Positions 10,981-29,771 of a stretch of DNA of 64,000 bases are shown piece by piece. The DNA is taken from NCBI GenBank assembly GCA_029263415.1, contig JAJCXN010000041.1, positions 141,338 to 205,337 of the forward strand, read 5' to 3'. Under the pieces are notes generated by a model. That model saw nothing but the letters and a program-made list of their open reading frames with translations, was not told the origin of the DNA and searched no databases. Both the position numbers and the translations under genes were made by a program. The DNA comes from Acidobacteriota bacterium. Lineage in GTDB: Bacteria; Acidobacteriota; Thermoanaerobaculia; Multivoradales; Multivoraceae. Positions within the stretch are counted from its first letter, which is position 1; every line of letters starts with the position of its first letter.

Positions 10981-13608
10981 TTATGAACTGGACATAACGT
11001 GCACGTTGGTGTCCAACGGTTCGAGTTCGTCTTCGATCGCGTTTTCTGTTGGGAGTTCCAATTGGGCGGTTTTGAGGGTCAAGAGAAGTTGCGCCTCTCG
11101 AGCATCGGTCGAATCGTCGAATGCCCTGCCTGACTCGCAGTATCGTCGCAATTGTTCTCGAGCTTCGCCTTTGCGGCCAACTCGAACCAGGTGCCGAAAC
11201 AACGAATTCCTCGCCCGGAGTTCGTAAAGATAGGCGCCCTGTTGTTGAGCCATCTGAATGGCCAGGTGAAACCCCCGCTCTGATCCGGTCGTTGTTTCGA
11301 TGCCGTCGGCTTCGCGTTGCGCGAACTGGATTTCGGCCATCAAGCGCTGAAGCTCAGCAGAGTGAGCTTGGTCGGCGGCGATGCTGGGCTGAGTCAACGC
11401 TTTGTAGGCGCCCTCTAGGTCGCCCTGGCGCAGGTGCGCCTCGCTTTGCCAAGACCGGTAGAGGCCGCCGAGGAAGATCGGGCCGGTGGGTTCGCGCTTC
11501 TTAAAGACCTGGTCTAACCTCTCTACGGATTCGAGGCTCGGTTCGAGATTGTAGGACGCCCAAGTGTGCAGAACGCGGCCAGCATCTCCGTACCACTCGA
11601 AGCCGTTCTCGTCTGCGATGGTAATCGCCCGCTTGGCGGCCTTAGCGGCCACCTCGAAGTCGCGGGCGAGACAAGCCGCCGTCGCTTCTGACGCCCAAAT
11701 GAGTAGTCGATCGTAGGGATTGGTCGCGCTGTCGAGGCGCTTGAGCATCTGTCGGCGCGCGAGGAGCGCCTCGCGGTGCCGGCCCTGAATGTGCAGTGCC
11801 CAAGCGCTATAGCCGTGGGCTGCGACGATGATGTCCCAGGTCTGAGGCTCAAGCTCGTCCTCGTTCGCTTGAGTGACCTCTTGCATCAACTCCAAGGTTC
11901 GATCGAATCTGCCTCGTCCGTAAGCGTCAAATGCCGCACGAAGGCACGCCAAAGGATAGAAGCTCGGACGATCCTGAGCCAGTTCGAGCAAGTCTTCACA
12001 CAGTTGAGGTGCGTCTTCCGAGCCAGTGAGTGCTGCGTTCAGGGTCCGACCCATGTGACTCCTCAAGATGATGTCCGCATCTCCACTCGCCGCGCTCAGA
12101 GCGTAGGCTCGATCTAGCGCCTCTCGAACTTCTGGATGTGAGTAGCCTTCCAACCATGTCCTGACGGTGGCTAGCTGCGTCCACCGTTCCGCGCTGCGCC
12201 GAGCCTGCTGTTGCGGTTCTGGTAAGCCATCTAACGCTTCTGCCGCTCGCCGAAGAAGTACCACTGCATGGGAAAAGGAAAAACGTTGGTGTGCATGGCT
12301 TGCAGCGACCTCTAGGTAGCGCACGTGCCGTTCGATGTCGCCAGCAGCTTCAAAGTGACCCGCCAGCTGGGCCGCGATCTGTTCAGTGCAGCCCTCGTAG
12401 GCGGCTTCGAGCCGCAAACCAATCCGACGGTGAAGTTCGCGGCTGCGGACTGCGCTGAGGCCTTGCAACAGGTGCTGGCGGTAGACGTCGTGATGGAACG
12501 CAAACTGTGAGCTGACGGTGTTGTCCGGCCACCGACTGTCACCTGTCCGTTGGAGGAAAAAGTCAGCCGCAGCTAGTTGCTCGAAAAGGCGCTCGACGTG
12601 TAGCCCGTCGCTGTCCGTGCCGGCGGCAACTTCTGCGGCCGTGAACTGCCCGCCTGCCACACTTGCGGCTTTGAGGATCTCTTTTTGCAGCTTGGGAAGC
12701 TCAGCCAGCTGAAGCCTGAGGAGCGTGGCGATGCTCTCGGGCAGCGAGGCTCCGGATCGCTTATGCAAATCCTCTCCGCGCCTGACCGCCCCTGACAGTG
12801 CCTCCAAGAAGAGAGGGTTTCCCCCGCAACGATCCCGGACCGCCGCCCAGTCGAAGTCCTCCGTGTCGCCGAAGCGTTGGTCGAGGTAGTTCTCAACCTC
12901 GGTTTCGTTCAAAGCTGCAAGTTGTAGATGGACAACGTTGTCGAGAGGTGTGAGCGTATCGACCGATGCAGTCAACGGGTGTCCGGAGATCTGGGCTGCA
13001 GAGGCTCTGAATGTGCAGATCACCAGTAGCTGCGTTGGTGCTTGCCTTCTGGAAATGGTCGCCACGAGGTCCAAGGTAGCGCTGTCGCACCAATGAAGAT
13101 CCTCAATCCACAACACAAGAGGGGTGCTCTTGGCAAGCGAAGAAATCACGTGGGCGCCCTCTCGCAGCATGCGAGCTGGACCTATTCCTTGCACGCTCGC
13201 AGCGAGCTCTTGTAGCTGCTGGGCAGACCAAAGCCACGGCATTTGCACCGCCCAACTGGGAGCTTCTCGGGCGATGGTGTCGATCGCCAAGGCTCGATCC
13301 GGCTGAGCCTCGATCGCCTGCTCCAGCGCCTCTAGGGCCGGCATGAAGGGCTCACATTCTCCTTGTTGTAACTGGCAACGGCCAACCGCGACTACCGCTG
13401 GTTGTTCGCTGGGGCCGGGTTCATTCAACCGAGACACGAAGGCCTTGGCCAGGCTGGTCTTGCCGATGCCTGCTTCGCCGCTGACCAGAACGATCTGGGG
13501 CTCGCAATGCTGGGCCTTTTGCCAGGCTGCGAGAAGGGCCTGCAGCTCCTGTTCTCGACCGACAAAATGAGCCGGCGCTTCAGGTCGCGGTTGGTCGTGC
13601 GGTGTCAT
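10981..13608 (-). CDS. AAA_16 (STAND-like) ATPase with a TPR region; large ATP-dependent regulator module
   Basis: Walker A VSGEAGIGKTSLA near the N-terminus, Walker B-like LVLWIEDLHWCD, and a long helical TPR-like C-terminal region. Its start overlaps the upstream winged-helix ORF's stop by 1 nt (TAATG). Confidence 0.8.
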   Translation of the reverse strand: MTPHDQPRPEAPAHFVGREQELQALLAAWQKAQHCEPQIVLVSGEAGIGKTSLAKAFVSRLNEPGPSEQPAVVAVGRCQLQQGECEPFMPALEALEQAIEAQPDRALAIDTIAREAPSWAVQMPWLWSAQQLQELAASVQGIGPARMLREGAHVISSLAKSTPLVLWIEDLHWCDSATLDLVATISRRQAPTQLLVICTFRASAAQISGHPLTASVDTLTPLDNVVHLQLAALNETEVENYLDQRFGDTEDFDWAAVRDRCGGNPLFLEALSGAVRRGEDLHKRSGASLPESIATLLRLQLAELPKLQKEILKAASVAGGQFTAAEVAAGTDSDGLHVERLFEQLAAADFFLQRTGDSRWPDNTVSSQFAFHHDVYRQHLLQGLSAVRSRELHRRIGLRLEAAYEGCTEQIAAQLAGHFEAAGDIERHVRYLEVAASHAHQRFSFSHAVVLLRRAAEALDGLPEPQQQARRSAERWTQLATVRTWLEGYSHPEVREALDRAYALSAASGDADIILRSHMGRTLNAALTGSEDAPQLCEDLLELAQDRPSFYPLACLRAAFDAYGRGRFDRTLELMQEVTQANEDELEPQTWDIIVAAHGYSAWALHIQGRHREALLARRQMLKRLDSATNPYDRLLIWASEATAACLARDFEVAAKAAKRAITIADENGFEWYGDAGRVLHTWASYNLEPSLESVERLDQVFKKREPTGPIFLGGLYRSWQSEAHLRQGDLEGAYKALTQPSIAADQAHSAELQRLMAEIQFAQREADGIETTTGSERGFHLAIQMAQQQGAYLYELRARNSLFRHLVRVGRKGEAREQLRRYCESGRAFDDSTDAREAQLLLTLKTAQLELPTENAIEDELEPLDTNVHVMSSS

Positions 13609-18318: not shown

Positions 18319-18557
18319 AGCGCTCTCCGGAAAGTTCACGCGTCGTTGCCAGAACCGTTGGGGCCTCGTCGAGGACAAGGGTGGTTTCGGTAGGAGGGGG
18401 CCTTTGATGGACGCGAACCCTGAGTGTACCGGTAGCGTGTTTGGCCGGAGCTAGATGGTGTCGGCGCCTAGCATCGCACGCTCCCACTTGCGGTGAGCGC
18501 GATTTGCCGATCAACTACTGCCCAATCCCGACGACGAACTGCTTGAGGCTCCTCGAT

Positions 18558-20603
18558 ATGACACGAATGAGAACAGTCCGCACGCTGGTGTACTGCTGCA
18601 TTGCGGCTGTATGGATGGTCGCCCTGGCGGCGCTGCCTGCAATAGCTCAAGAGCCAGCAGCGCCCACAGCGGCAGTAGATCAAGAGTGGCGCCACTACGG
18701 CTCGGACCGTCAGAGTTCCAAGTACTCGCCTGCGGATCAGATCGATGAAAACAACGTTGCCGAGCTTGAAGTTGCCTGGCGCTGGCAATCCCCAGACGGC
18801 GCAGTTGGCGGGCGAGGGGGAGTCAGTCCGCTCAAGGTCACGCCAATCTTGGTAGATGGCGTGCTCTATGCGATCAGCGCTCTGAATTTGCTCAGTGCGA
18901 TCAACCCGATCACCGGCGAGGAACTATGGCGCTACGACCCCAAGGCGTACGAAGGGACACGACCAACCCACGGGGGACTGAACCATCGAGGCCTCGAATC
19001 TTGGACCGGTCCGCGCGACCCGGAGGCGGTGCCAGGTGACGAGACCGAAGCTGTGACGCGCCTGGTCTATGGAACCGGGACGCAGCAATTGATCTCGATC
19101 GACCCTAGAACCGGGAAGCCTGATCCCGCATTCGGCGAAGGGGGAGTGGTCGACATGCGACCCGACGTGGCTGAAGAGAAGGACGTGCGCCACACGGGGC
19201 TCAACTCGCCGCCGATCGTTTGCGCCGACACCATCATCGTCGGCATGGTGGTGAATGACTTCGGCACTACGCAGAAGATGCCGGTCGGTCACGTGCGCGG
19301 CTACGATGTGCGAACCGGCGAGAAGCGCTGGACCTTCCACTCGATTCCTCAAGGTAATGAATTGGGCACCGAAACGTGGGAAGAGGAATCGTGGCGCTAC
19401 TCAGGCAACACCAATGTCTGGTCCTTGATGAGTTGCGACAATGAAACTGGCATAGCCTATCTGCCGTTTGGCACGCCGACCAACGACCACTACGGCGGGC
19501 ATCGCCTGGGCAACAATCTCTATGCCGAGAGCTTGGTTGCGGTTGACGCTGCAACGGGAAAGCGGGTCTGGCATTTTCAAGGAGTACACCACGGGCTGTG
19601 GGACTACGACTTTCCCTGTGCCCCCAACCTGATCGACGTCACGGTTGATGGCGAGTTGATTCCCGCGGTTGCTCAGGTTTCGAAGCAGGGCTACACCTAC
19701 GTGTTGAACCGCGTGACCGGCAAGCCGGTGTGGCCGATTGAAGAACGGAAGGTCGCGCCCAGCACGGTGCCCGGCGAACGGGCGTCTGAGACCCAGCCGA
19801 TTCCTAGCAAACCACCACCTTTTGATCTGGTTGGTATTGGGAAAGACGACTTGTTGGATCTGACTCCCGAGATCAAGGAAGCGGTTGTAGAGACTGCTTC
19901 GAAGTACAAGATGGGGCCGTTGTTTACTCCCCCCATCGTGGGTGGCGAAGACGGTAAGTACGCAACCATCATCTCGCCCGGACTCGCAGGTGGAGCGAAT
20001 TGGGGCGGCGCTGCGGTTGATCCCGAGTCCGGCGTGCTCTTCGTCCCGTCTCAGACTAGGGTGATGACGGTTTCGGTAGCGCCGCCTTCCGGGCGGCTGC
20101 GCGGCGACCTCGATTTCATGCGCCAGCATCCTCCGTTGTCGGGACCCGGCGGTTTGCCGATCACCAAGCCACCCTGGAGCCGGATCACGGCGATCGATCT
20201 CAACAAGGGAGAAATCCTGTGGCAGGTGGCCCATGGTGAAGGCCCGAAACATCACCCAGCTCTGGAAGGGCTCGAGCTCGAGGCATTGGGCTCTTGGCCG
20301 TTGGCGGGACTAGCCCCGGGCTGGCCGATGGCGACCAAGACGCTGTTGTTTGCAGCCCAGGGTGTGCAAGGGATTGCCGGGGGCGAAACCACTGGATACT
20401 TGCGGGCTTACGACAAGGCAAGCGGCGATCTGGTTTGGGAGAAGGACCTTGGTCATCCTGCGCGGGGTGCACCGATGACCTATGTGGTCGATGGCCAACA
20501 GTTCATTGTGGTGGCGATCGGTGATGCCTCGAAGGTCCGTGAGTTGGTCGCCTTCGCGCTACCAACGTCCGCGCCCCAAGCTGGGGGCGCCGAAACGGGG
20601 TGA
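18558..20603 (+). CDS. PQQ-dependent dehydrogenase (quinoprotein alcohol/sugar dehydrogenase family), periplasmic
   Basis: Signal peptide, then WRHYGSDRQSSKYSPADQIDENNVAELEVAW (typical quinoprotein N-terminal block). Repeated W-containing propeller motifs; ~680 aa. No CxxCH heme domain seen. Confidence 0.8.
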   Translation: MTRMRTVRTLVYCCIAAVWMVALAALPAIAQEPAAPTAAVDQEWRHYGSDRQSSKYSPADQIDENNVAELEVAWRWQSPDGAVGGRGGVSPLKVTPILVDGVLYAISALNLLSAINPITGEELWRYDPKAYEGTRPTHGGLNHRGLESWTGPRDPEAVPGDETEAVTRLVYGTGTQQLISIDPRTGKPDPAFGEGGVVDMRPDVAEEKDVRHTGLNSPPIVCADTIIVGMVVNDFGTTQKMPVGHVRGYDVRTGEKRWTFHSIPQGNELGTETWEEESWRYSGNTNVWSLMSCDNETGIAYLPFGTPTNDHYGGHRLGNNLYAESLVAVDAATGKRVWHFQGVHHGLWDYDFPCAPNLIDVTVDGELIPAVAQVSKQGYTYVLNRVTGKPVWPIEERKVAPSTVPGERASETQPIPSKPPPFDLVGIGKDDLLDLTPEIKEAVVETASKYKMGPLFTPPIVGGEDGKYATIISPGLAGGANWGGAAVDPESGVLFVPSQTRVMTVSVAPPSGRLRGDLDFMRQHPPLSGPGGLPITKPPWSRITAIDLNKGEILWQVAHGEGPKHHPALEGLELEALGSWPLAGLAPGWPMATKTLLFAAQGVQGIAGGETTGYLRAYDKASGDLVWEKDLGHPARGAPMTYVVDGQQFIVVAIGDASKVRELVAFALPTSAPQAGGAETG

Positions 20604-20666: not shown

Positions 20667-22526
20667 CTAGAGAGCGATCGGTCCGTGGCCCTCGATGAGT
20701 AGCTCGTCGACGGTCATGGTCACGTGCTCGCCTTGGCGGACGTCGTGATCAAACTTGTAGGTCACTCCGAGATCGCCCTTGCTCGCGGCCGCGTCGTACT
20801 CAGCGGCCTTGGCTCGTGTGATCTCAACGCGATCGCGCCAAGCGCTCATGGCGTCGCCACCAAACGTTTGCTCCAGCTGTTGTTGAACGACATGCGGACC
20901 AGCCACCCAGGCAGTTGCGTTGTTGCCGCCAAAGCCTTTGGCGTTGAGAAACGCGACGTCGTAGTCGGTAGCAGCGCCCGTGATGTGTTCGCTGTCGATG
21001 CGCAATCGATCGCCTGAAATGTCGTCGGCAGGTCCGTCGATGGTGGCGATGCCGGGGATCACACCGTCGGCCCAGGTACCCAAGCAGGAAGCCAACTGGT
21101 CGCCACCGGCAGCTGCCATGGTGTGACCGACGAAGCACTTGATGGCGGCGACTGGCCATTCCTGGATGTCGAAGGTTTTGGCAACTAGATCGAGAATCTC
21201 GGATTCACTCGTGCGGTTCTGCGGCGTCCCCGTGCCGTGAGCGTGTACGAAGCTGCGTTGTGCGATGGCTTCAGTACCGAGCACCTTGCGCGCCGACGCG
21301 ACGGCCTTGGCAAAGGTGATGTAGTTGCCCACCCCAGGAGAGGAGATCGATTTTTTGTGTCCGTCAGCGTGCACAAAGACGTCGCCGACAGCGCCCAAGA
21401 TGTTGGCGCCCATCTCGACCGCGAGCTCGGCGTCCATCAAGACGCAGAACTGGGCCCCCTCGCCCATGACGAAACCACCGTTGATGCCAAAGGGACGGCA
21501 GGCCCTTCGATGATTGGGAGTCTCGCCCGGCTGCTTGCCTTCGAGCTGGAGCAAAGCGGCGTCGCCAATCAAAGCGCCCATGGTGGCGAGTCCATCCATC
21601 GCGTCCGCCACCAGCGGCGCCTCGACGCCGCCAATCACCGCGACGCGCGAGCGACCTTCACGAATGTCCTGTACGCCTAAGCGCAGGTTGTAGTGGAAGG
21701 TGGCGCATGCGCCCATGTTGTGGCCGGTTTGGCCCATGCTGCCGAGTACGTAGGCGTTGGTGAAGTCGGCGGCCATCTCGCCAAGGCCCATTGGTACCTG
21801 CTTCGAAGATACCCGCTTGCCCCGTTGGCGAGAGGAGAGCAGGCCACCGTTGCCGTTTTGATCGAGCTGGGTCATGGCGCTGCCAGCGTAGGTTGAGAAC
21901 TGGTCGGGTGGTACTCGATCAAGGATGGTCTGCCAGTCGATACCAAGACTGTTGATCGCATCGCTCGCTGCCACGACCGTGAGTTCCAGGCCGCGAGGAT
22001 GACTGCGTGCGGGATAGTGGTCGCCGGGCTCGAAGCCAGTGGGAACCATGCCGCCCGCTGCAACTCCGAGGTCGCGCGTGTCGGGCACGAACAGTTCTGT
22101 TTGGTCGGTGACCGTGATGGTGATGCGTTGCTTGTTGCCTTCGCCCTTTGTGCTTTCGACAGTCCACCCTGGCGGCATGGCCTCAGGCAACTCGCGCTTG
22201 CTGATCTCGAAGCGGAGTGGAGTGTCTGTGGCTTGCAGGCAAACGCGTCGGTTCCAAGGAGCAGCGTTGGGATTGAAGAACGACGGCTCAATGCGGCGGA
22301 CTAAGGACCCGGTCCTTAGGCGCTCAATGGCAGCTTGGTCGAGGCTATCGGCGTTCTTGCTACCTGTGAGGCCGGCTAGGCTGCGCCACATCGCGTCGAC
22401 TTTGGCGGTGGGGAGGGCTGAGTGCGTGGTACGTCGGTAGGCTTGGTGAGAGGAACTTCGACCGGCGGCACCGACACCGCCGAAACTGACAATGACCGGG
22501 AGTCGCTGAGAAAAGTTAGTGGACAC
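20667..22526 (-). CDS. Beta-ketoacyl-ACP synthase with a long N-terminal extension (FabY-like KAS I/II-type initiating condensing enzyme)
   Basis: KS active-site Cys context GHNMGACATF, HAHGTGT and CFVGHTMAAAGG (KAS His/His). At 619 aa with a ~250-aa N-terminal extension it resembles the P. aeruginosa FabY class; that assignment is from memory. Confidence 0.7.
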   Translation of the reverse strand: MSTNFSQRLPVIVSFGGVGAAGRSSSHQAYRRTTHSALPTAKVDAMWRSLAGLTGSKNADSLDQAAIERLRTGSLVRRIEPSFFNPNAAPWNRRVCLQATDTPLRFEISKRELPEAMPPGWTVESTKGEGNKQRITITVTDQTELFVPDTRDLGVAAGGMVPTGFEPGDHYPARSHPRGLELTVVAASDAINSLGIDWQTILDRVPPDQFSTYAGSAMTQLDQNGNGGLLSSRQRGKRVSSKQVPMGLGEMAADFTNAYVLGSMGQTGHNMGACATFHYNLRLGVQDIREGRSRVAVIGGVEAPLVADAMDGLATMGALIGDAALLQLEGKQPGETPNHRRACRPFGINGGFVMGEGAQFCVLMDAELAVEMGANILGAVGDVFVHADGHKKSISSPGVGNYITFAKAVASARKVLGTEAIAQRSFVHAHGTGTPQNRTSESEILDLVAKTFDIQEWPVAAIKCFVGHTMAAAGGDQLASCLGTWADGVIPGIATIDGPADDISGDRLRIDSEHITGAATDYDVAFLNAKGFGGNNATAWVAGPHVVQQQLEQTFGGDAMSAWRDRVEITRAKAAEYDAAASKGDLGVTYKFDHDVRQGEHVTMTVDELLIEGHGPIAL

Positions 22527-22688
22527 AGAAACCCTCTTTGGAGGTCATGGGGCGAGAGAGGTTCCGCATGGAATGCGGGGTCCAGCGCCTGAGGTGTAGC
22601 TCGATCGTTCGGCGGTACGTCAGTCTAGGACAGCGATTGGTTCGTAGTTTGTTGAAATGGACAACTAGTTTGTCAGAATGGTCATTCC

Positions 22689-23681
22689 GTGTTCCACGTT
22701 GCATTCATCGTCCATCCGCGCGCTCTCCTCACAGGCCTGACGATCCCGCTCGAGATGCTGCGGGCTGCAGACGAGATCGATCGCGTCAGCAGACGAGAAC
22801 CGTCACGCTTGAGGGTGAGCATTGCCACCACCGGCGATCGTGCTTTTGAGGCGCTGGGTGCTCTGACCGTAGTGCCTCAGCAGCCTCTCGCCGAGCTAAG
22901 ACATGTCGATTTGGTGTTCATCCCTCCGTTCTGGAGGAAGCCGAAGGTCAATCTTCCTGCTGTGATCCATCAACTGGTCGAACTCGAGGCGCAGGGTGCA
23001 TCGATCTGCGCGGTGAGCACTGGGTCGTTCCTGTTAGCGGAGGCGGGGCTGCTGGACGGGCGCGCAGCCACAACACACTGGTCCTTTCTGAACGACTTCG
23101 CCGAGCGCTACCCTAGTGTCCTGCTTAAGCGCCATCATTTGATTACTCGTTCTGAGCGACTCTTCTGTGCAGGAAGTCTAAATGCCACGGCCGATCTCAC
23201 CGCGTTCTTCATCGAGCGATGGTTGGGCACCGAGACCGCACGATTGGTCGAGGCTCAGTTCTCGCCTGAGATTAGGCAACCGGTGCGACAACAAGGGTAC
23301 TTCGACGGTGAGATCAACGAACAGCCCGACGAACTCATGGCAGTGGCTCAAGGGTGGTTGACGGAACGGCTCGCTGGGCCAGTGCGAGTGACCGAGTTGG
23401 CTAAGCATCTCGGTGTGAGTCAGCGCTCCTTAAATCGAAGGTTCCAGATTGCCGTTGGTTGCACTCCCGGGAAGTACCTGAGGGACTTGAGGGTGGAGGC
23501 CGCAACTGGACTCTTGAGGAACAGCAACTTGTCGGTGGCAGAGATTGGGGTCCGCGTGGGCTACGTCGATGCGGGGCACTTCTCGACCGTCTATCGTCGC
23601 AGTACGGGCAGATCGCCGCGAGCGTTCAGAGCGGCAGTGAGGGTGAAGTTGTTTGGTTCCGGGGTCGAGACCGCCAAGTAG
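22689..23681 (+). CDS. GlxA-family transcriptional regulator (DJ-1/PfpI-like domain + AraC HTH)
   Basis: N-terminal DJ-1/PfpI-like region (VFIPPFW...ICAVSTGSFLLAEAGLLDGRAATTHW). C-terminal AraC-type HTH (LAKHLGVSQRSLNRRFQ...GYVDAGHFSTVYRRSTGRSP). GTG start. Confidence 0.8.
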   Translation: MFHVAFIVHPRALLTGLTIPLEMLRAADEIDRVSRREPSRLRVSIATTGDRAFEALGALTVVPQQPLAELRHVDLVFIPPFWRKPKVNLPAVIHQLVELEAQGASICAVSTGSFLLAEAGLLDGRAATTHWSFLNDFAERYPSVLLKRHHLITRSERLFCAGSLNATADLTAFFIERWLGTETARLVEAQFSPEIRQPVRQQGYFDGEINEQPDELMAVAQGWLTERLAGPVRVTELAKHLGVSQRSLNRRFQIAVGCTPGKYLRDLRVEAATGLLRNSNLSVAEIGVRVGYVDAGHFSTVYRRSTGRSPRAFRAAVRVKLFGSGVETAK

Positions 23682-23801
23682 GCGCATTCGGACAGTACTC
23701 GTGAGAATCGACACAGCTTCAAGAGAGCTCCTCAGGGGAGAGTTCGCCTTCATAGGCTAGGCTATGGGGTAGTTCCATTCTTGAGAGGATCCCCAAAGGC
23801 C

Positions 23802-25259
23802 ATGTTCAAAGTCAAATCCCGTTCCCTAGCGCGGCTGTCCGTGCTGTTTTCATGCGCTGCGTTACTCGCAGCCTCAGCGTTTGCCGCAGCCCCAGTGGAG
23901 ACCGACAACTGGCCATCCTTCCGAGGCTCGAAGGCATTGTCGATTGCGGATGATGATCCCCGCTTGCCGACCAGCTGGAGTACCGAAGAGAACGTGGCAT
24001 GGAAGGTGCCGGTTGATGGACTGGGCTGGTCGTCGCCCGTGATTTGGGGCAACAAAGTCTTTGTGACCACGGTTGTTAGCGACGGTGAGGTTGAAGAGCC
24101 AAAGATGGGCCTCTACTTTCCGTATGGCTCGCCAGAGTCTGGCGGATTCCCGACCAAGGACGGCGTCTTGATGGAGCGCGCGAAGGACCAGCATCATTGG
24201 TGGGTGTATGCCTTCGATTTCGAGACTGGCGAGTCACTGTGGAAGACCAAAGTGCACAGTTCAGTGCCCAATTTTGATCGCCATTTGAAGAACACCTATG
24301 CGTCGGAGACCCCGGTCACCGACGGCGAACGTGTCTATGCGATGTTCGGCAACGTTGGTGTATGGGCCTTGGACATGGACGGCAAGATTTTGTGGAACAA
24401 GCCCATGGAGGCCAGTGCCACTCGACTAGGTTGGGGAACCGCCGCATCACCGGTGTTGCACGGCGAGACCTTGGTGGTGGTCAACGACAACGACGACCAG
24501 TCCTACATGATGGGCTTAGCCGCAAGGACCGGCGAAGTCGGCTTCACGGTCAAACGCGAAGAGGGCACCAACTGGTCGACACCGTTTGTGTGGGAGCACG
24601 AGGGTCGTACGGAGATCGTCACCGCTGGCAGCGATCAAGTGAGGTCCTATGACCTCGAAGGTCGGCAACTGTGGAGTCTGAGCGGCATGGATTCGATTTC
24701 GATTCCGCAACCGTTCAGCGCGCACGGTCTTCTCTATCTGACGTCCGGCTACGTCGGCGACAAGATTAAGCCAGTGTTTGCGATCCGTCCCGGCGCTACT
24801 GGTGACATCACTTTAGAAGAAGGACAACAGAGCAACGAATACGTTGTTTGGTACAACGACTCTGCGGGCCCTTATCATCCGACCCCGCTGGTCTACGGCG
24901 ACTACTACTTCACCTTGCTCGACCTTGGTTTCTTCACTGTGCACAACGCCAAGACCGGTGAGGAGTTGTACTTCACCGAGGATCAAAAGGCGTCCAAGCA
25001 AGTCAAGCGCAGGATCAAGCGTGGGTCCGGTGGATTCACCGCGTCGCCTTGGGCCTACAACGGCAAGATCTTTGTGCTGAGTGAAGATGGCGATACTTAC
25101 GTTCTCGACAGCGCCAACAACTTTGAGCTGGTGGGCACGAACTCGCTGGACGAAGTGGCGATGTCGACACCGGCAATGGCTAGGGGTTCGTTGTTCATCC
25201 GAACGCGCGGTCATCTCTATCGCTTGACCAATGCTGATGCGAAGGTGAGTGGCCCGTAG
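23802..25259 (+). CDS. PQQ-like beta-propeller repeat protein (BamB-like fold), secreted
   Basis: Signal peptide MFKVKSRSLARLSVLFSCAALLAASAFAA. Repeated [WSSP.I.....VFV.T..G] propeller blades (WSSPVIWGNKVFVTT, ETPVTDGERVYAMFGN, VWALDMDGKILW). Confidence 0.7.
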   Translation: MFKVKSRSLARLSVLFSCAALLAASAFAAAPVETDNWPSFRGSKALSIADDDPRLPTSWSTEENVAWKVPVDGLGWSSPVIWGNKVFVTTVVSDGEVEEPKMGLYFPYGSPESGGFPTKDGVLMERAKDQHHWWVYAFDFETGESLWKTKVHSSVPNFDRHLKNTYASETPVTDGERVYAMFGNVGVWALDMDGKILWNKPMEASATRLGWGTAASPVLHGETLVVVNDNDDQSYMMGLAARTGEVGFTVKREEGTNWSTPFVWEHEGRTEIVTAGSDQVRSYDLEGRQLWSLSGMDSISIPQPFSAHGLLYLTSGYVGDKIKPVFAIRPGATGDITLEEGQQSNEYVVWYNDSAGPYHPTPLVYGDYYFTLLDLGFFTVHNAKTGEELYFTEDQKASKQVKRRIKRGSGGFTASPWAYNGKIFVLSEDGDTYVLDSANNFELVGTNSLDEVAMSTPAMARGSLFIRTRGHLYRLTNADAKVSGP

Positions 25260-25314
25260 CGGTCCTCGGCGAAACGACGGTTGCGTCGGTTCGCTTTCCA
25301 AGGCTTGGTGCAGG

Positions 25315-26595
25315 ATGGAGCAGGCTGATTATGAGCCAGCGCTCGTGCGCACAGGCGCACGTCTGGCGGGCTGGGGCCCGGTTCTGAGACGCGGTGCGAG
25401 TGCGCCGCGAGTGCCATGCTTTGGAGGAGTGCTGCTAGTGCTCTTTGCCGGCGCGACAGCGGAGGCGCAGGACGATACCTGGGTCGGCGGAGCCGCTCAG
25501 GTGGTGCATGCGCACTGTGCGAGTTGCCATCACGTCGGCGGGCCAGGGCCGATGGCTTTGGTGACGTATGACCAAGTGCGGCCTTGGGGCAAAGCGATTG
25601 CCCGGCAGGTGCAGAACGGCCGGATGCCGCCGTGGCACGCGGTCGCGGGTGGTGAGTTTTCGAACGACCGTCGGCTAGACGACGCTGAACGCGAGCTGCT
25701 GTTGCGGTGGGTGGCTGGCGGAATGGCTCGCGGCGAGGGCGTGGTTGAACTGCCAGAATTCGAGCAGGGCTGGCGGATCGGAGAGCCCGATCTAGTGATC
25801 GAGATGCCCGAGGTGGTGACCGTCCCAGCGAGCGGAGAGCTGCCATACCACGACTACCTGGTAGACCCGGGCTTCACCGAGGACGTCTGGGTTAAGGCCG
25901 CCGAGTCGCGCCCGGGCAATTCCAAGGTTGTGCACCACATCATCGTCGGCTACTTGATCGAAGACCCGTTGGCGCGACGACGGCTAGCAGCGCAGGGGCA
26001 AGAGGGCCGGGTGCAAGGTAGCTTGGGTGGCTATGTGCCAGGAGATGAACCGTTGATTCTCGAACCGGGCTTGGCTCGGCTGATTCCGAAGGGTTCGAAG
26101 ATCTACTTTCAGATGCACTACACGCCGAACGGCGAAGAGCAGACGGATCGTTCGCGACTGGGTCTGGTGTTCGCCGACGGGCCGCCCAATCACGAAGTCA
26201 AGACTGGTATTGCATCGAGTCCGTTCATCCGAATTCCGGCGGGGTCGGAGGACACTTCGTTGTCTGCGACGTTTCGGTTCACGAGCGAGAGCGTCCTGCT
26301 TTCAATGAGGCCGCACATGCACCTGCGTGGCAAGACCTTTGAATATCGCGTGCGCTATCCAGACGCGAGCGAAGAAGTTCTGCTCAAGGTCGATGACTAT
26401 GACTTTGGATGGCAGACCAACTACATGCTGCAAACCCCAAAGGTCTTGCCTGCGGGAACTGAACTGATTTGTACGGGATCGTGGGACAACACGGCCGCAA
26501 ATCCCAACAATCCCGATGCAGGCAAGACTGCGTCGTGGGGTCAGCAAACCGATGACGAGATGATGATCGGGTTCTTCGAGTACTACCACCGCTAG
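25315..26595 (+). CDS. Mono-heme cytochrome c domain fused to a copper type-II ascorbate-dependent-monooxygenase-like (PHM/DBH-like) domain; secreted. The start is uncertain (possible GTG near 25405).
   Basis: CASCHH heme c site. PHM-like ligand pattern with near-canonical spacing: HH (aa 229-230), H (290), HMH (356-358), M (438-439), counted on the track ORF. Confidence 0.55.
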   Translation: MEQADYEPALVRTGARLAGWGPVLRRGASAPRVPCFGGVLLVLFAGATAEAQDDTWVGGAAQVVHAHCASCHHVGGPGPMALVTYDQVRPWGKAIARQVQNGRMPPWHAVAGGEFSNDRRLDDAERELLLRWVAGGMARGEGVVELPEFEQGWRIGEPDLVIEMPEVVTVPASGELPYHDYLVDPGFTEDVWVKAAESRPGNSKVVHHIIVGYLIEDPLARRRLAAQGQEGRVQGSLGGYVPGDEPLILEPGLARLIPKGSKIYFQMHYTPNGEEQTDRSRLGLVFADGPPNHEVKTGIASSPFIRIPAGSEDTSLSATFRFTSESVLLSMRPHMHLRGKTFEYRVRYPDASEEVLLKVDDYDFGWQTNYMLQTPKVLPAGTELICTGSWDNTAANPNNPDAGKTASWGQQTDDEMMIGFFEYYHR

Positions 26596-26941
26596 CAGTC
26601 CGTGGTGAAACTCGCGCGGGACTGAGCGCGGGGATCTGGGTGGTCAGTTCGTGGTGCGCCGGCCTCCCGCGGGACCGCAGTGAGGAGTACCCGAGCAAGC
26701 TCGAGCACAGGTAGATGTTCCACGGAAGGCTTCGCACTCCCGCGGGAGGCTTGCGCACCGGGGTATCGTTGACGAGCATCGGTCCCACGGGAGGCTCGCG
26801 CACTACGATTTGGCCGCCCAAACCCCGTGGGACGGCGCTCGAACTCAGCCCACGGGAACTTCACCACTCACTGCTAGCCGGGTCGACTATCATCTCGACT
26901 TCCTTGTCCAGACAACACGTCCTCTTCATTGCGAGATCCTC

Positions 26942-28483
26942 ATGACCTCAGCCATTGTCATCTTCGGGTATCTGGCGGTGGTGACCGCCGTTGGTTCACT
27001 ACTCGCGCGCCGCACGCAGTCGTCGTCGGATTGGGCGGTTGCCGACGGTCGGATGGGAATCATCCTGGTCGCGGCGGGCGTTGCCGGCACCAGAATCGGT
27101 GGTGTTGGCACCTACGGAGTGGCGGGAGATGTGCTCCAAGACGGTCTGTGGAGTCTCTGGTACGCGGTGAACACGTTCCTTGCTCTAGCCATGGTTGGGC
27201 TGTTCTTTGCCGTTCCTTTCCGCCGGCTCAAGCTGCAGACGGTGGGCGAGGTGTTCACCAAGCGCTTTGGCAGCAGGCGTTGCCAGAGCTTGACCAGCCT
27301 GTGTGTGCAGACTGAATACTTCATTATCAACATCCTCGAGCCGTTCATCATCGGCAGCATTGTCAGCACAGTGCTCGATATTCCGTTTGCACTAGGTGTG
27401 CTCATTGGCGCGGTGTGCTTGATTCTTTATACCGCGCTCGGCGGGCTCTGGGGGTCGGCAGCGACCAACGTGATCCACTGCACTGTGGTGCTGGCTGGCC
27501 TGGCGATGGTTAGCTGGATCGGGCTACGTGACGCCGGAGGTTGGACCGCTCTTAAGATGTCGGTGGATAGTGCTCTTGCGGCGAACCTCGCTGCTAACCC
27601 GAACGCGGTTCCAGCCGCCGAGTGGTGGAGTTTCATTGGGCCCGGGTGGGCGGTGGTGATTGCGATGTTTTTTTCCGCGACTATCCACACACCCGCGGCG
27701 TCTGTGTATGTCAATTTCTCGAGTGCAGCGCGCCGCGAGCGCACCTTGCTGCCCGCCTTTCTCTTGGCCGGTGGAGTCGCAGCGCTGATGCCGCTTTTGG
27801 CGGGGTTTGTGGGCATGCTGACGCTCGGTAAGTACGGTGCTGATTCGGGGCTTTCCAGTTATCGCTCGATCACGCAGCTTGCACTCGACATCAGTCCGCT
27901 CTTGGGCGGTATCGCCTTAGCAGCGATCCTTGCTGCGGTGATTTCTTCGGGCGGACCAATCCTGCTCTCGAGTTCCACCATGCTGGTGCGTGACTGGTTG
28001 CCTAAGATTGATGGGCTTGCTCAATCGCAGCAGTTGATGGCACTGCGTGTGACCACCGTGATCTACGGTTTGGTCGCAGCGCTGATCGCGTGGAAGGGGC
28101 AGATCGGCTCCATCCTCGACTTGCTGTTGCTCGGGTTTGCGATGGTGGTGCCTCCCGCGATCGCGCTGGCCTACGTGCTCTATTGGCGCCGGACCACCGA
28201 AGCAGCAAGCTTTTGGGGGATCGCGGTCGGTTACGGCGCGGGGCTTGCTTGGTACGCCGGCATTCGCTGGGCCGAGTCCGCAGGATGGAGCGCCGGTGAA
28301 GGTGCGGGGGCATTGGCCAACTTTGCGCAGTGGGGGTTTGTTAACGGCGGCGGCGTCGATCCGTCGTACATCACCACGCTGGTTCCGCTGGTCTTGATCC
28401 CGGTGATGAGCCTGCTCGGCAAGGACGTTGTGAATGGCACCAGCACGGCGTTCAGAAAGCAGCTCTCAACGCCCGCGGGGTGA
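26942..28483 (+). CDS. Sodium:solute symporter family (SSS) transporter
   Basis: ~13 TM segments. SSS-like N-terminus MTSAIVIFGYLAVVTAVGSLLARRTQSSSDWAVADGRMG and glycine-rich helices. Start at the internal ATG 26942; the upstream track extension is non-coding-like. Confidence 0.8.
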   Translation: MTSAIVIFGYLAVVTAVGSLLARRTQSSSDWAVADGRMGIILVAAGVAGTRIGGVGTYGVAGDVLQDGLWSLWYAVNTFLALAMVGLFFAVPFRRLKLQTVGEVFTKRFGSRRCQSLTSLCVQTEYFIINILEPFIIGSIVSTVLDIPFALGVLIGAVCLILYTALGGLWGSAATNVIHCTVVLAGLAMVSWIGLRDAGGWTALKMSVDSALAANLAANPNAVPAAEWWSFIGPGWAVVIAMFFSATIHTPAASVYVNFSSAARRERTLLPAFLLAGGVAALMPLLAGFVGMLTLGKYGADSGLSSYRSITQLALDISPLLGGIALAAILAAVISSGGPILLSSSTMLVRDWLPKIDGLAQSQQLMALRVTTVIYGLVAALIAWKGQIGSILDLLLLGFAMVVPPAIALAYVLYWRRTTEAASFWGIAVGYGAGLAWYAGIRWAESAGWSAGEGAGALANFAQWGFVNGGGVDPSYITTLVPLVLIPVMSLLGKDVVNGTSTAFRKQLSTPAG

Positions 28484-28505: not shown

Positions 28506-28542
28506 GAGTTGACCTCGGTCCGCTAGGCCCGAGGTCAACCTC
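28506..28542. terminator. Candidate bidirectional terminator hairpin between the convergent SSS and TPR genes
   Basis: ttgacctcgg / ccgaggtcaa is a perfect 10-bp stem with a 10-nt loop. The flanking T-rich tract is weak. Confidence 0.35.
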
Positions 28543-28571: not shown

Positions 28572-29771
28572 CTAGCTGGGAGTGGGCGGTGGCCCACCGG
28601 TTCGAATGTTGACCGCAGCCTCATCGGCTTGGCGCTTTTGTTCGATCAGATCGGCGCGCTGCTTGTTGAACTCCTCGGCTTTTGCGTTCTCCAGCGCGAT
28701 CAAGCGGTTGGCCTCGACGCGTGCAACGTCGTCGGTCCTATTTGCCGCCGTGTAGGCAGAGATGGCCTCGTCGTACCTCTTCTGCATTTCAAAGATGAAG
28801 CCGAGTTGTTCCGAGGTCTGCGTTGTCTGATGCGCATCGGTCGCGAGCCCAAGAGCCATGGTCAGTTGCCCTTCTGCCGCTACGTACTTCTGGTCGAGGA
28901 GAAGTGCGCGTCCGCTAAGGAACGTGAGCAACCAATCGCCCTTTGTTGCAACCGCCGCAACGGTCGCGGTGCTCAGTAGCTCCGCTGCTTGGCTGTAACG
29001 TTGAGCGTTGATCAGTACGTCGGCGTAGAGCGCTGTCGTGTTGCGGTTTGGATTCGCCTCAAAGGCCAATGCGGCCGGTTCCAGGGCAACTGTGTAAAGG
29101 GCGAGTCGCTCAGGCGCTTCAGCAGCGAGCGCTTGGTCGACCAACGCGGCAACTTGAGCCCTGCGAATTTTCGCGTCGGTAGGCTCGATCTCGACGGCCT
29201 TCGCGAACGCCGAGGCTGCGTCGGTGAAGCGGTTCGCCTTCTTTAGCGCGACCCCGTAGGTCGCCCAAGCGCTGGCGGTGCCGGTGACTTTGGCGAGTTG
29301 TTCGAGGTCGCCGAGTCGATCGCCACTGCATGCCGCTTTGGCCCGCAGCTTGTAGAGGGCGACCTGGAACTGTGCGCTCACCGTCGCGGCGTCGACGCGA
29401 TCAAGAACCACGCAGGCATCTTCGGGTTTCTCGATCGCTAATAGCGCCTTTGCCAAGGTCAGCAGGATCGCTGGTTGACCGCTGTGTAGCTCATCTGCGC
29501 GCCTTAGGTGTGCCGCCGCTTTCTGAGCGTCACCGGCGTTCAACAGCCCGGTGTTCAACAGTGCGGTGCCGAGCATTTGGTGGCCTTGATATGCGTCGGG
29601 CGCAGTTTCGACGTAGCGCGCAAAGGCAGCGGCAGCTTCTTCATGCTTGCCAGCCTGGTACGCGGTCACGCCTTGGTCCCAATCGCCGTTCGCCCAAACG
29701 GACGGCGCCAAGGCCGCCATCGCTAGTAAAGCGAGGAGTGGGGTGAACCGGGTGTTGGTGGGCTTGCGCAT
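28572..29771 (-). CDS. TPR-repeat protein with signal peptide
   Basis: Signal peptide MRKPTNTRFTPLLALLAMAALAPSVWA. Multiple TPR-like helical pairs (AYQAGKHEEAAAAFARYVETAPDAYQGHQMLGTALLNTG...). Confidence 0.65.
   Translation of the reverse strand: MRKPTNTRFTPLLALLAMAALAPSVWANGDWDQGVTAYQAGKHEEAAAAFARYVETAPDAYQGHQMLGTALLNTGLLNAGDAQKAAAHLRRADELHSGQPAILLTLAKALLAIEKPEDACVVLDRVDAATVSAQFQVALYKLRAKAACSGDRLGDLEQLAKVTGTASAWATYGVALKKANRFTDAASAFAKAVEIEPTDAKIRRAQVAALVDQALAAEAPERLALYTVALEPAALAFEANPNRNTTALYADVLINAQRYSQAAELLSTATVAAVATKGDWLLTFLSGRALLLDQKYVAAEGQLTMALGLATDAHQTTQTSEQLGFIFEMQKRYDEAISAYTAANRTDDVARVEANRLIALENAKAEEFNKQRADLIEQKRQADEAAVNIRTGGPPPTPS

Follow-up and report, generated by a model that had tools for sequence, protein, structure and literature searches.

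To our knowledge, PHM, DBH and tyramine beta-monooxygenase are the sole well-studied non-coupled binuclear copper monooxygenases, and all three are eukaryotic and ascorbate-dependent. The two-site arrangement of PHM and DBH, with a methionine ligand at the CuM site, is the one that is used for C-H hydroxylation. Covalent fusion to a c-type haem domain is familiar from cytochrome c-fused NirK and from the quinohaemoprotein type II alcohol dehydrogenase (ADH; PDB 1kb0), whereas we know of no characterised case in which a PHM-type catalytic domain is fused to cytochrome c. We analysed a stretch of 64,000 nucleotides from an Acidobacteriota bacterium (GenBank assembly GCA_029263415.1, contig JAJCXN010000041.1, positions 141,338 to 205,337; hereafter the window), in which the gene g3 encodes such a predicted fusion directly downstream of g2, the gene for a predicted secreted beta-propeller. 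The window has a GC content of about 60%, its nearest relatives are metagenome-assembled genomes of Acidobacteriota and Thermoanaerobaculia, and one Logan contig (L001) carries the same sequence; NCBI and Logan sources also record the encoded protein, on contigs of up to 355,580 bp. A regulator gene, g1, precedes the pair and a symporter gene, g4, follows it, and the original prediction had joined all four genes in a module for periplasmic oxidation followed by uptake. We conclude with good confidence that g2 and g3 are a two-gene unit, and we consider it fairly probable that this unit is a periplasmic cassette consisting of a haem-fed copper hydroxylase and its propeller partner.

The predicted haem c-copper protein and its propeller partner

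The two genes and the predicted metal ligands of g3, whose conservation was scored in an alignment of 27 g3 homologues, are located as follows:

g2, 23802-25259, + strand: secreted 8-bladed PQQ_2/BamB-like beta-propeller, 485 aa from ATG; alternative TTG start at 23781
g3, 25315-26595, + strand: secreted cytochrome c::PHM/DBH-like copper monooxygenase (predicted), 426 aa; alternative GTG start at 25249
CxxCH haem c attachment site (C68, C71, H72), 25516-25530, + strand: kept in at least 90% of the 27 homologues
Probable axial Met104 in an MPPW motif, 25624-25626, + strand: MPPW invariant
CuH-type H207 and H208, 25933-25938, + strand: invariant; align with PHM H107 and H108
CuH-type H268, 26116-26118, + strand: invariant; aligns with PHM H172
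CuM-type H334 and H336, 26314-26316 and 26320-26322, + strand: invariant; align with PHM H242 and H244
CuM-type M416, 26560-26562, + strand: invariant; aligns with PHM M314
R332, 26308-26310, + strand: aligned with PHM R240; precedes the CuM HxH by two residues

The N terminus of g3 begins with a hydrophobic signal-like segment, read directly from the sequence, and with the CxxCH site and the methionine of MPPW it is predicted to be an exported, class-I-like monohaem cytochrome c domain. In Pfam, Cytochrome_CBB3 (PF13442) matched g3 with 24.9 bits, under its gathering score of 27, and Cu2_monoox_C (PF03712) matched with 24.9 bits, just over its gathering score of 23; among the 27 g3-family members, the former was matched by 25 and the latter by 22 at E<=0.01. 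The AlphaFold2 model of g3 (mean predicted local distance difference test score, pLDDT, 82) was then compared with the PDB by Foldseek, and all of the matches at ranks 1-31 were PHM or DBH (E 5e-12 to 3.5e-9), with alignments of about 290 columns that cover both catalytic domains and a target-normalised TM of about 0.6. Furthermore, hhalign aligned a profile built from the PHM-like region of the family members with the rat PHM catalytic core (PHMcc) at E 1.5e-4 over 220 columns, with a probability of 51%, and placed all six PHM copper ligands on invariant columns of the g3 family; the rat query sequence had been checked against PDB 4e4z/1sdw (E 2e-219). The assignment of the copper domain to the PHM/DBH type, by modelled fold and metal-site residues, thus appears sound.

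The resemblance to PHM and DBH extends from the two-domain beta-sandwich fold and all six copper ligands (HH...H and HxH...M) to the local motifs VHH, Q-x-HY, R-x-H-x-H-x-x-GK and DEM, whereas g3 differs from both in that it is bacterial and Sec-exported, carries an N-terminal cytochrome c domain that they lack, and shares only about 15% sequence identity with them. Cytochrome c-fused NirK and type II ADH resemble g3 in another respect, since they too combine a periplasmic catalytic domain with a fused c-type haem as electron port; the difference is that the catalytic domain of g3 is of the PHM type.

R332 was kept, as RPH[ML]H, only across the unfused, propeller-linked acidobacterial clade to which g3 belongs, and in the redoxin-fused planctomycete forms of the family its position is taken by F, N, M, S, L or T. 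The retention of this equivalent of PHM R240 suggests that the substrate in the unfused acidobacterial clade may carry a carboxylate.

The product of g2 has a signal peptide at its N terminus and matched PQQ_2 in Pfam with 53.6 bits, and its model (pLDDT 78) is an 8-bladed propeller. When this model was searched with Foldseek, BamB came first (E 1e-17) and tetrathionate hydrolase next (1e-14), and in the structural ranking BamB, YxaL and Rv3035 all stood above the quinoproteins. The 8-bladed fold is what g2 has in common with these three proteins; in contrast to them, g2 lacks a conserved lipobox cysteine, is about 100 residues longer and is far more conserved, and, as distinct from BamB, it is linked to a redox enzyme and not to the BAM complex. 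BamB itself was therefore rejected as an identity for g2, which scored 32.7 bits against the BamB equivalog NF008351 (cut-off 423) and has no conserved lipobox cysteine in its alignment, so that only the fold is shared.

Among 23-25 homologues of 57-83% identity, about 150 columns of the g2 alignment are invariant; they include four histidines and many acidic and aromatic residues, as well as the motifs DRHLKNTYASETPVTDG, VNDND, IPQPFS, SGYVGD, AGPYHPTPL and SPWAYN. In every pair, the conservation of g2 exceeds that of g3 by 6-18 identity points. Such extreme conservation would be expected of a protein with a specific active site or with an interface to a fixed partner, and not of a bland scaffold.

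These analyses bore out several elements of the original prediction, namely a secreted protein combining a c-type haem with a PHM-like bicopper site, as seen in the fold, the six aligned ligands and the CxxCH motif, and a copper domain for which one hidden Markov model (HMM), PF03712, scores marginally above its threshold. The description of the propeller as non-catalytic-looking survives in part: it agrees with the rank of BamB, YxaL and Rv3035 above the quinoproteins, but the conservation of g2 argues for a specific site or interface.

In the mechanism that we propose, electrons would enter g3 through its own haem c domain, which would replace ascorbate, because the bacterial periplasm offers no obvious supply of this reductant; indeed, none is expected there. 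A periplasmic donor would reduce the haem one electron at a time, and the electrons would travel from there to CuH and on to CuM, where O2 would be activated for the hydroxylation of a C-H bond in a periplasmic substrate. The propeller g2 would be dedicated to g3, either by binding or presenting its substrate or by docking onto the enzyme, and would not be a quinoprotein dehydrogenase.

Conservation of the pair and extent of the two families

We then compared the loci that carry an unfused g3 homologue, and g2 and g3 were adjacent in 13 of the 15 independent ones (12 of 14 if L016 and L023 are one lineage, as they may be). In the window (= L001) and in L003, L004/L014, L015, L016, L017, L019, L020, L021, L023, L024, L025 and L104, a g2 orthologue stands upstream on the same strand, with identities of 57-83% for the g2 orthologue and 48-67% for the g3 homologue. 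The secreted propeller directly upstream of g3, as originally described, is thus a conserved partner. In L018, a gene for an AlkZ-like glycosylase intervenes between the two.

The junction in the window is tight: g3 overlaps g2 by 11 nt if it starts at GTG 25249, and 55 nt separate the two genes if it starts at ATG 25315. In every measurable directly paired locus, the g3 CxxCH follows the g2 stop by 117-257 nt. Since this leaves room for a signal peptide only, the two genes must abut or overlap at these loci as well, and g2 is probably translationally coupled to g3.

The genes that flank the pair change at nearly every locus, and the examples include Nramp/GSDH/TauD, FtsX, carbamoyltransferase/amine oxidase, DPP-IV/ETF-QO, Ada/Ogt/GFO_IDH and ACAD. 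The pairing of g2 with g3 has therefore outlasted an almost complete turnover of its neighbours, and no shared functional theme emerged among the flanking genes of the paired loci compared.

At three loci from relatives of about 50% identity, some of the neighbours recur. The pair lies just downstream of Ada/AlkA and Ogt genes in L019 and L021 and of Ogt alone in L020, and a GFO_IDH_MocA gene follows it in all three. The DNA-alkylation repair and GFO_IDH_MocA neighbours probably reflect lineage synteny.

To size the g3 family, HMMER was run over all 1.84 billion cluster representatives (clusters at 50% identity); 2,326 clusters passed the limit of E<=1e-30, and the looser one of E<=1e-10 was passed by 8,026. 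The closest relatives (63-73% identity) are unfused acidobacterial proteins like g3. Below about 50% identity, Planctomycetota and Verrucomicrobiota supply most of the members. These have a length of about 580-600 aa and an additional N-terminal redoxin domain of the AhpC/TSA type, sometimes together with EF-hands (fused in L010 and L012), and they are annotated as 'redoxin domain-containing protein' or 'peroxiredoxin / mono-diheme cytochrome c family protein'. Their core is homologous to g3 over its full length (37-50% identity) and has the same invariant ligands; they differ from g3 in the added redoxin domain, in having no g2-type propeller nearby and in lacking the R240-equivalent arginine. 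The g3 family is no peculiarity of this window, and databases already contain its members as unnamed proteins. In the literature searched, we found no characterised bacterial PHM-like or cytochrome-fused member of the family, nor any characterised system of the composition seen here, as the original prediction had also held. A preprint on PQQ propellers does not treat this family either.

Several members of the g3 family have additional features or neighbours. Two long proteins, P0361 (1251 aa) and P0363 (1064 aa), matched g3 in two separate stretches and may contain two cytochrome c::PHM-like modules per polypeptide. Near the redoxin-fused homologue of L007 lies a gene for a small monohaem cytochrome c, together with one for a 163-aa protein of no assigned function on the opposite strand, and the open reading frames (ORFs) near the redoxin-fused homologue of L005 match those of L007 in size and arrangement. 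In L012, an MMPL/RND-type transporter gene is located directly downstream of the redoxin-fused homologue, and L013 has an ORF of similar size at this position. A distant paralogue was found in L033, which is the same sequence as L034 and L035 and represents a single metagenomic organism. Between 5914 and 12596, this contig encodes, in order, a g2 homologue (67%), a secreted 295-aa protein without a Pfam match, a cytochrome c::PHM-like paralogue with 30% identity to g3 and all ligands kept, and an NHL-repeat propeller, whose gene has a frame break near 11400 and which matched PAL (3fvz) at E 1e-23. This juxtaposition of a PHM-like gene and an NHL propeller is the one known from eukaryotic PAM.

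The g2 family extends beyond the subset that is linked to g3. Homologues of about 55% identity occur in tandem propeller arrays in L042-L047, L055, L056, L073 and other soil loci, and these arrays comprise three to six paralogous PQQ_2 propellers with 21-33% identity to g2, on both strands. Within the 64-kb window, no paralogue of g2 or g3 and no PAL-like gene was found elsewhere.

Weighing the proposed function

Several observations speak against a haem-fed copper hydroxylase with a dedicated propeller. As for the pair, two lineages (L002 and L102/L103) have g3 homologues of 68% identity but no adjoining g2. On the Thermoanaerobaculia chromosome of L002 (OY761158.1), genes for an enoyl-CoA hydratase and an acyl-CoA dehydrogenase lie upstream of g3, and a g2 homologue is also encoded (P0133, 74%), at more than 8 kb from g3. 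The gene that comes after g3 in L102/L103 is a Glyoxalase_3 gene. Furthermore, in a neighbourhood survey based on g2, which covered the best 80 metagenomic g2 loci, only three had a close g3 (L023, L024 and L025; 73-74%) and three more, which are assemblies of one sequence, had a distant g3; at others, g2 was followed by a true PQQ (pyrroloquinoline quinone) dehydrogenase, by paralogous propellers or by unrelated genes. Since most of the metagenomic g2 homologues are located away from g3, g2 may have a function of its own. Co-transcription of the pair with g4 may also occur, as far as the sequence indicates.

As for the chemistry, the N-domain model PF01082 matched only one of the 27 family members (E 0.002) and did not match g3 itself, and an HMM of the g3 family did not retrieve PHM from the PDB. 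At the hhalign probability given above, the sequence link between g3 and PHM is weak, and it is carried by hhalign, Pfam and the fold comparison. The PHM substrate-binding residues N316 and Y318 are not conserved, being replaced by I418 and F420 in g3, so that g3 should not be filed as a peptidylglycine hydroxylase. The loading of g3 with copper and haem is inferred from the ligand residues. Finally, most members of the family have a redoxin domain in place of a propeller partner, which could signal thiol or peroxide chemistry and not hydroxylation.

This last point leads to the best-surviving alternative, in which the g3 family would not hydroxylate substrates but would serve in the periplasm for redox protection or as an electron sink. 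Its members could then be oxidases, peroxidases or thiol-linked reductases, for example, and their copper would reduce O2 or peroxide using electrons supplied by the haem or by the redoxin domain. Most of the homologues indeed carry the N-terminal AhpC/TSA-type redoxin, the nearest solved relatives of this domain are thiol-disulfide oxidoreductases, and OsmC and thioredoxin genes lie near some of the loci (L021 and L017). However, none of the PHM-type ligands varies, so that the CuM methionine and both of the separate copper sites are complete throughout, and g3 and its clade lack the redoxin domain and carry the R240-equivalent arginine. We therefore regard this alternative as unlikely.

A second alternative is that g2-g3 is a bacterial analogue of PAM, in which g3 would hydroxylate a glycine-extended or similar substrate and the propeller would perform the lyase-type step. 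A PHM-type enzyme beside a propeller does mirror PAM (PDB 5wm0 was matched), L033-L035 place the distant g3 paralogue between a g2 homologue and the PAL-matching NHL propeller, R332 occupies the position of the carboxylate-binding R240, and g2 has four invariant histidines and many invariant acidic and aromatic residues. However, g2 is an 8-bladed propeller of the BamB type and not a 6-bladed NHL propeller; it had no NHL match in Pfam, and PAL was not among its top structural matches, which are 8-bladed. Thus g2 belongs to another propeller class than PAL, and a PAL-like lyase was rejected for it on fold. The NHL protein of L033 is also closer to generic NHL proteins than to PAL, and its layout comes from a single organism. 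A PAM analogue in this sense is improbable.

The same holds for a third alternative, that g2 is a dehydrogenase, PQQ-dependent or other, which feeds electrons to the haem c of g3. Quinoproteins use cytochrome c as an electron acceptor, and g2 has PQQ_2 repeats. In L027, L028 and L030, g2 homologues stand directly upstream of a true PQQ dehydrogenase that is 44% identical to that of the window, which belongs to the glucose/quinate family, lacks a membrane anchor and is encoded 3 kb upstream of g2:

True soluble PQQ dehydrogenase, 18441-20603, + strand: PF01011, 615 bits

This adjacency suggests that the g2 family may have a recurring quinoprotein link. The HMM scores of g2 and its structural ranking nevertheless contradict a dehydrogenase, since g2 gave no full-length match to PF01011 or to TIGR03074/03075; a true quinoprotein was rejected on these grounds, and we give this alternative little credit.

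For the cassette of a haem-fed copper hydroxylase and a propeller partner, the PHM/DBH-type enzyme would be the known part, and the bacterial periplasmic setting, the fused haem c port and the dedicated propeller partner would be new. A stronger version is possible, and we put it forward tentatively and with some doubt: g2-g3 would be an ascorbate-independent PHM-type system whose haem is wired to respiratory or periplasmic donors and whose propeller serves for substrate binding or for a subsequent reaction. Its target outside the cytoplasm would be a peptide or small molecule with a carboxylate, which would be hydroxylated and possibly also dealkylated or amidated; the thousands of redoxin-fused relatives in Planctomycetota and Verrucomicrobiota would run the same chemistry with another electron input. 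A bacterial branch with its own haem electron port would show how PHM-type chemistry proceeds without ascorbate and would provide a tractable system for the long-debated step of inter-copper electron transfer. It would also point to an unrecognised extracytoplasmic hydroxylation or amidation in phyla that are abundant in soil and sea (Acidobacteriota, Planctomycetota and Verrucomicrobiota).

The regulator, the symporter and other neighbours

The remaining features around the pair are as follows:

g1, 22689-23681, + strand: GlxA-type regulator (DJ-1/PfpI + AraC HTH; predicted)
KAS-like gene, 20667-22526, - strand: divergent from g1
Nested palindrome of about 290 nt, 26591-26878, no strand: resembles a REP cluster or MITE; in the g3-g4 spacer
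g4, 26942-28483, + strand: sodium:solute symporter family transporter (predicted), 513 aa; outside the conserved unit
13-bp hairpin, 28506-28541, no strand: between the convergent g4 and TPR gene
TPR gene, 28572-29771, - strand: convergent with g4

That g1 to g4 are one regulated operon, in which the propeller binds a substrate, the haem-copper enzyme oxidises it and the symporter imports the product, is the least probable alternative and a very unlikely one, because, although the genes are co-directional with no opposite-strand gene between them, no canonical terminator was called between the genes and g1 is kept beside g2-g3 in L104, a symporter gene of the SSS family is not beside g2 or g3 at any other locus that extends past g3, a 75%-identical g4 homologue lies behind PadR-MacB/FtsX genes, the g3-g4 spacer holds a palindrome of -180 kcal/mol, and the regulator is present at one other locus only.

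The original prediction fared unevenly on this point. Its four co-directional genes with their domains were recovered by our ORF reading of the window, in which g1 to g4 all lie on the + strand at the coordinates first predicted, and by Pfam. The block as such fell away when other genomes were compared, since the pair is conserved in 13 of 15 loci, g1 in one and g4 in none, and the four-gene module of oxidation and then uptake occurs at no other locus compared. 'Short or overlapping' junctions hold for g2/g3 only, and not for g1-g2 with a gap of 99-120 nt or for g3-g4 with one of 346 nt (with g4 read from ATG 26942). The hairpin between g4 and the convergent TPR gene does have a real 13-bp stem, but it lacks a U tract, its spacer folds just 1.8 standard deviations better than shuffled sequences, and the terminator scan made no call at 28506-28541. 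The practical message for the window is that the unit worth studying is the g2-g3 pair and not the four-gene block.

The scan for canonical terminators and promoters gave no call inside the g1-g4 block, and the sole promoter-like site found lies upstream of g1, at 22652-22679. Rfam (E<=1) gave no riboswitch or known RNA in the 18-32 kb region, the g3-g4 spacer included.

The gene g4 matched SSF (PF00474) with 106.6 bits against a gathering score of 22.8, and it did not reach the cut-off of any subfamily (PutP 60.6 versus 515.5, PanF 45.1 versus 328 and ActP 20.6 versus 1099). Its SSS domain begins at about residue 45 of the long ORF that starts from TTG, and the protein of 513 aa from ATG 26942 is recorded, identical to the present reading, as P0241 in NCBI and Logan sources. 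Near the pair, no SSS gene was found in any other locus extending past g3; L104 and L025 end inside or at g3 and are uninformative on g4. The closest g4 homologue with a readable context, P0243 (75% identity), follows the PadR-MacB/FtsX genes with an upstream spacer of only 160 nt and has no g1-g3-like genes nearby. By these comparisons, g4 appears as a neighbour without a detectable evolutionary link to g2-g3, and the symporter no longer figures as a member of the module.

The palindrome takes up nearly the whole spacer between g3 and g4, and its left arm begins at the g3 stop codon. Its outer arms are GCTAGCAGTCCGTGGTGAAACTCGCGCGGG and the complement, it contains the inverted repeats I1-I3 and three copies of the 20-mer CCCRCGGGAGGCYYGCGCAC, and its RNA fold has a free energy of -180.4 kcal/mol (z = -6.3). 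The element looks like a repetitive extragenic palindromic (REP) cluster or a miniature inverted-repeat transposable element (MITE). A repeat dispersed in the window was considered and rejected, as its 20-26-mers are confined, within these 64 kb, to the g3-g4 spacer.

GlxA/GATR-type regulators such as GbdR are frequent controllers of catabolic and uptake genes, and by its domain architecture g1 is predicted to be an AraC regulator of this type, in agreement with its original assignment. Both of its domains scored above their gathering scores (HTH_18, PF12833, 83.8 bits versus 33.6; DJ-1/PfpI, PF01965, 29.3 bits versus 26.6), and its best NCBIfam matches remained under the equivalog cut-offs (FtrA 152.7 versus 425 and GbdR 122.3 versus 480). 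The regulator g1 may be a lineage-specific local regulator of g2-g3, of the divergent KAS-like gene, or of both. Operator motifs were sought in the KAS/g1 and g1/g2 spacers, which are too diverged between the window and L104 to be read.

The KAS-like gene encodes a beta-ketoacyl synthase-like protein of 619 aa, with a long N-terminal extension and KS domains from about residue 180, and its FabF score is 113 bits (cut-off 494). Outside the window, g1 was found beside g2-g3 only in its nearest relative, L104 (69.5% identity), where the order is KAS-like (-), g1 (69.5%), g2 (83%) and g3 (65%) and where the KAS-like gene is a 49%-identical fragment at the contig end. The divergent KAS-like/g1 layout thus seems to be kept in L104, which suggests that g1 may regulate the KAS-like gene.

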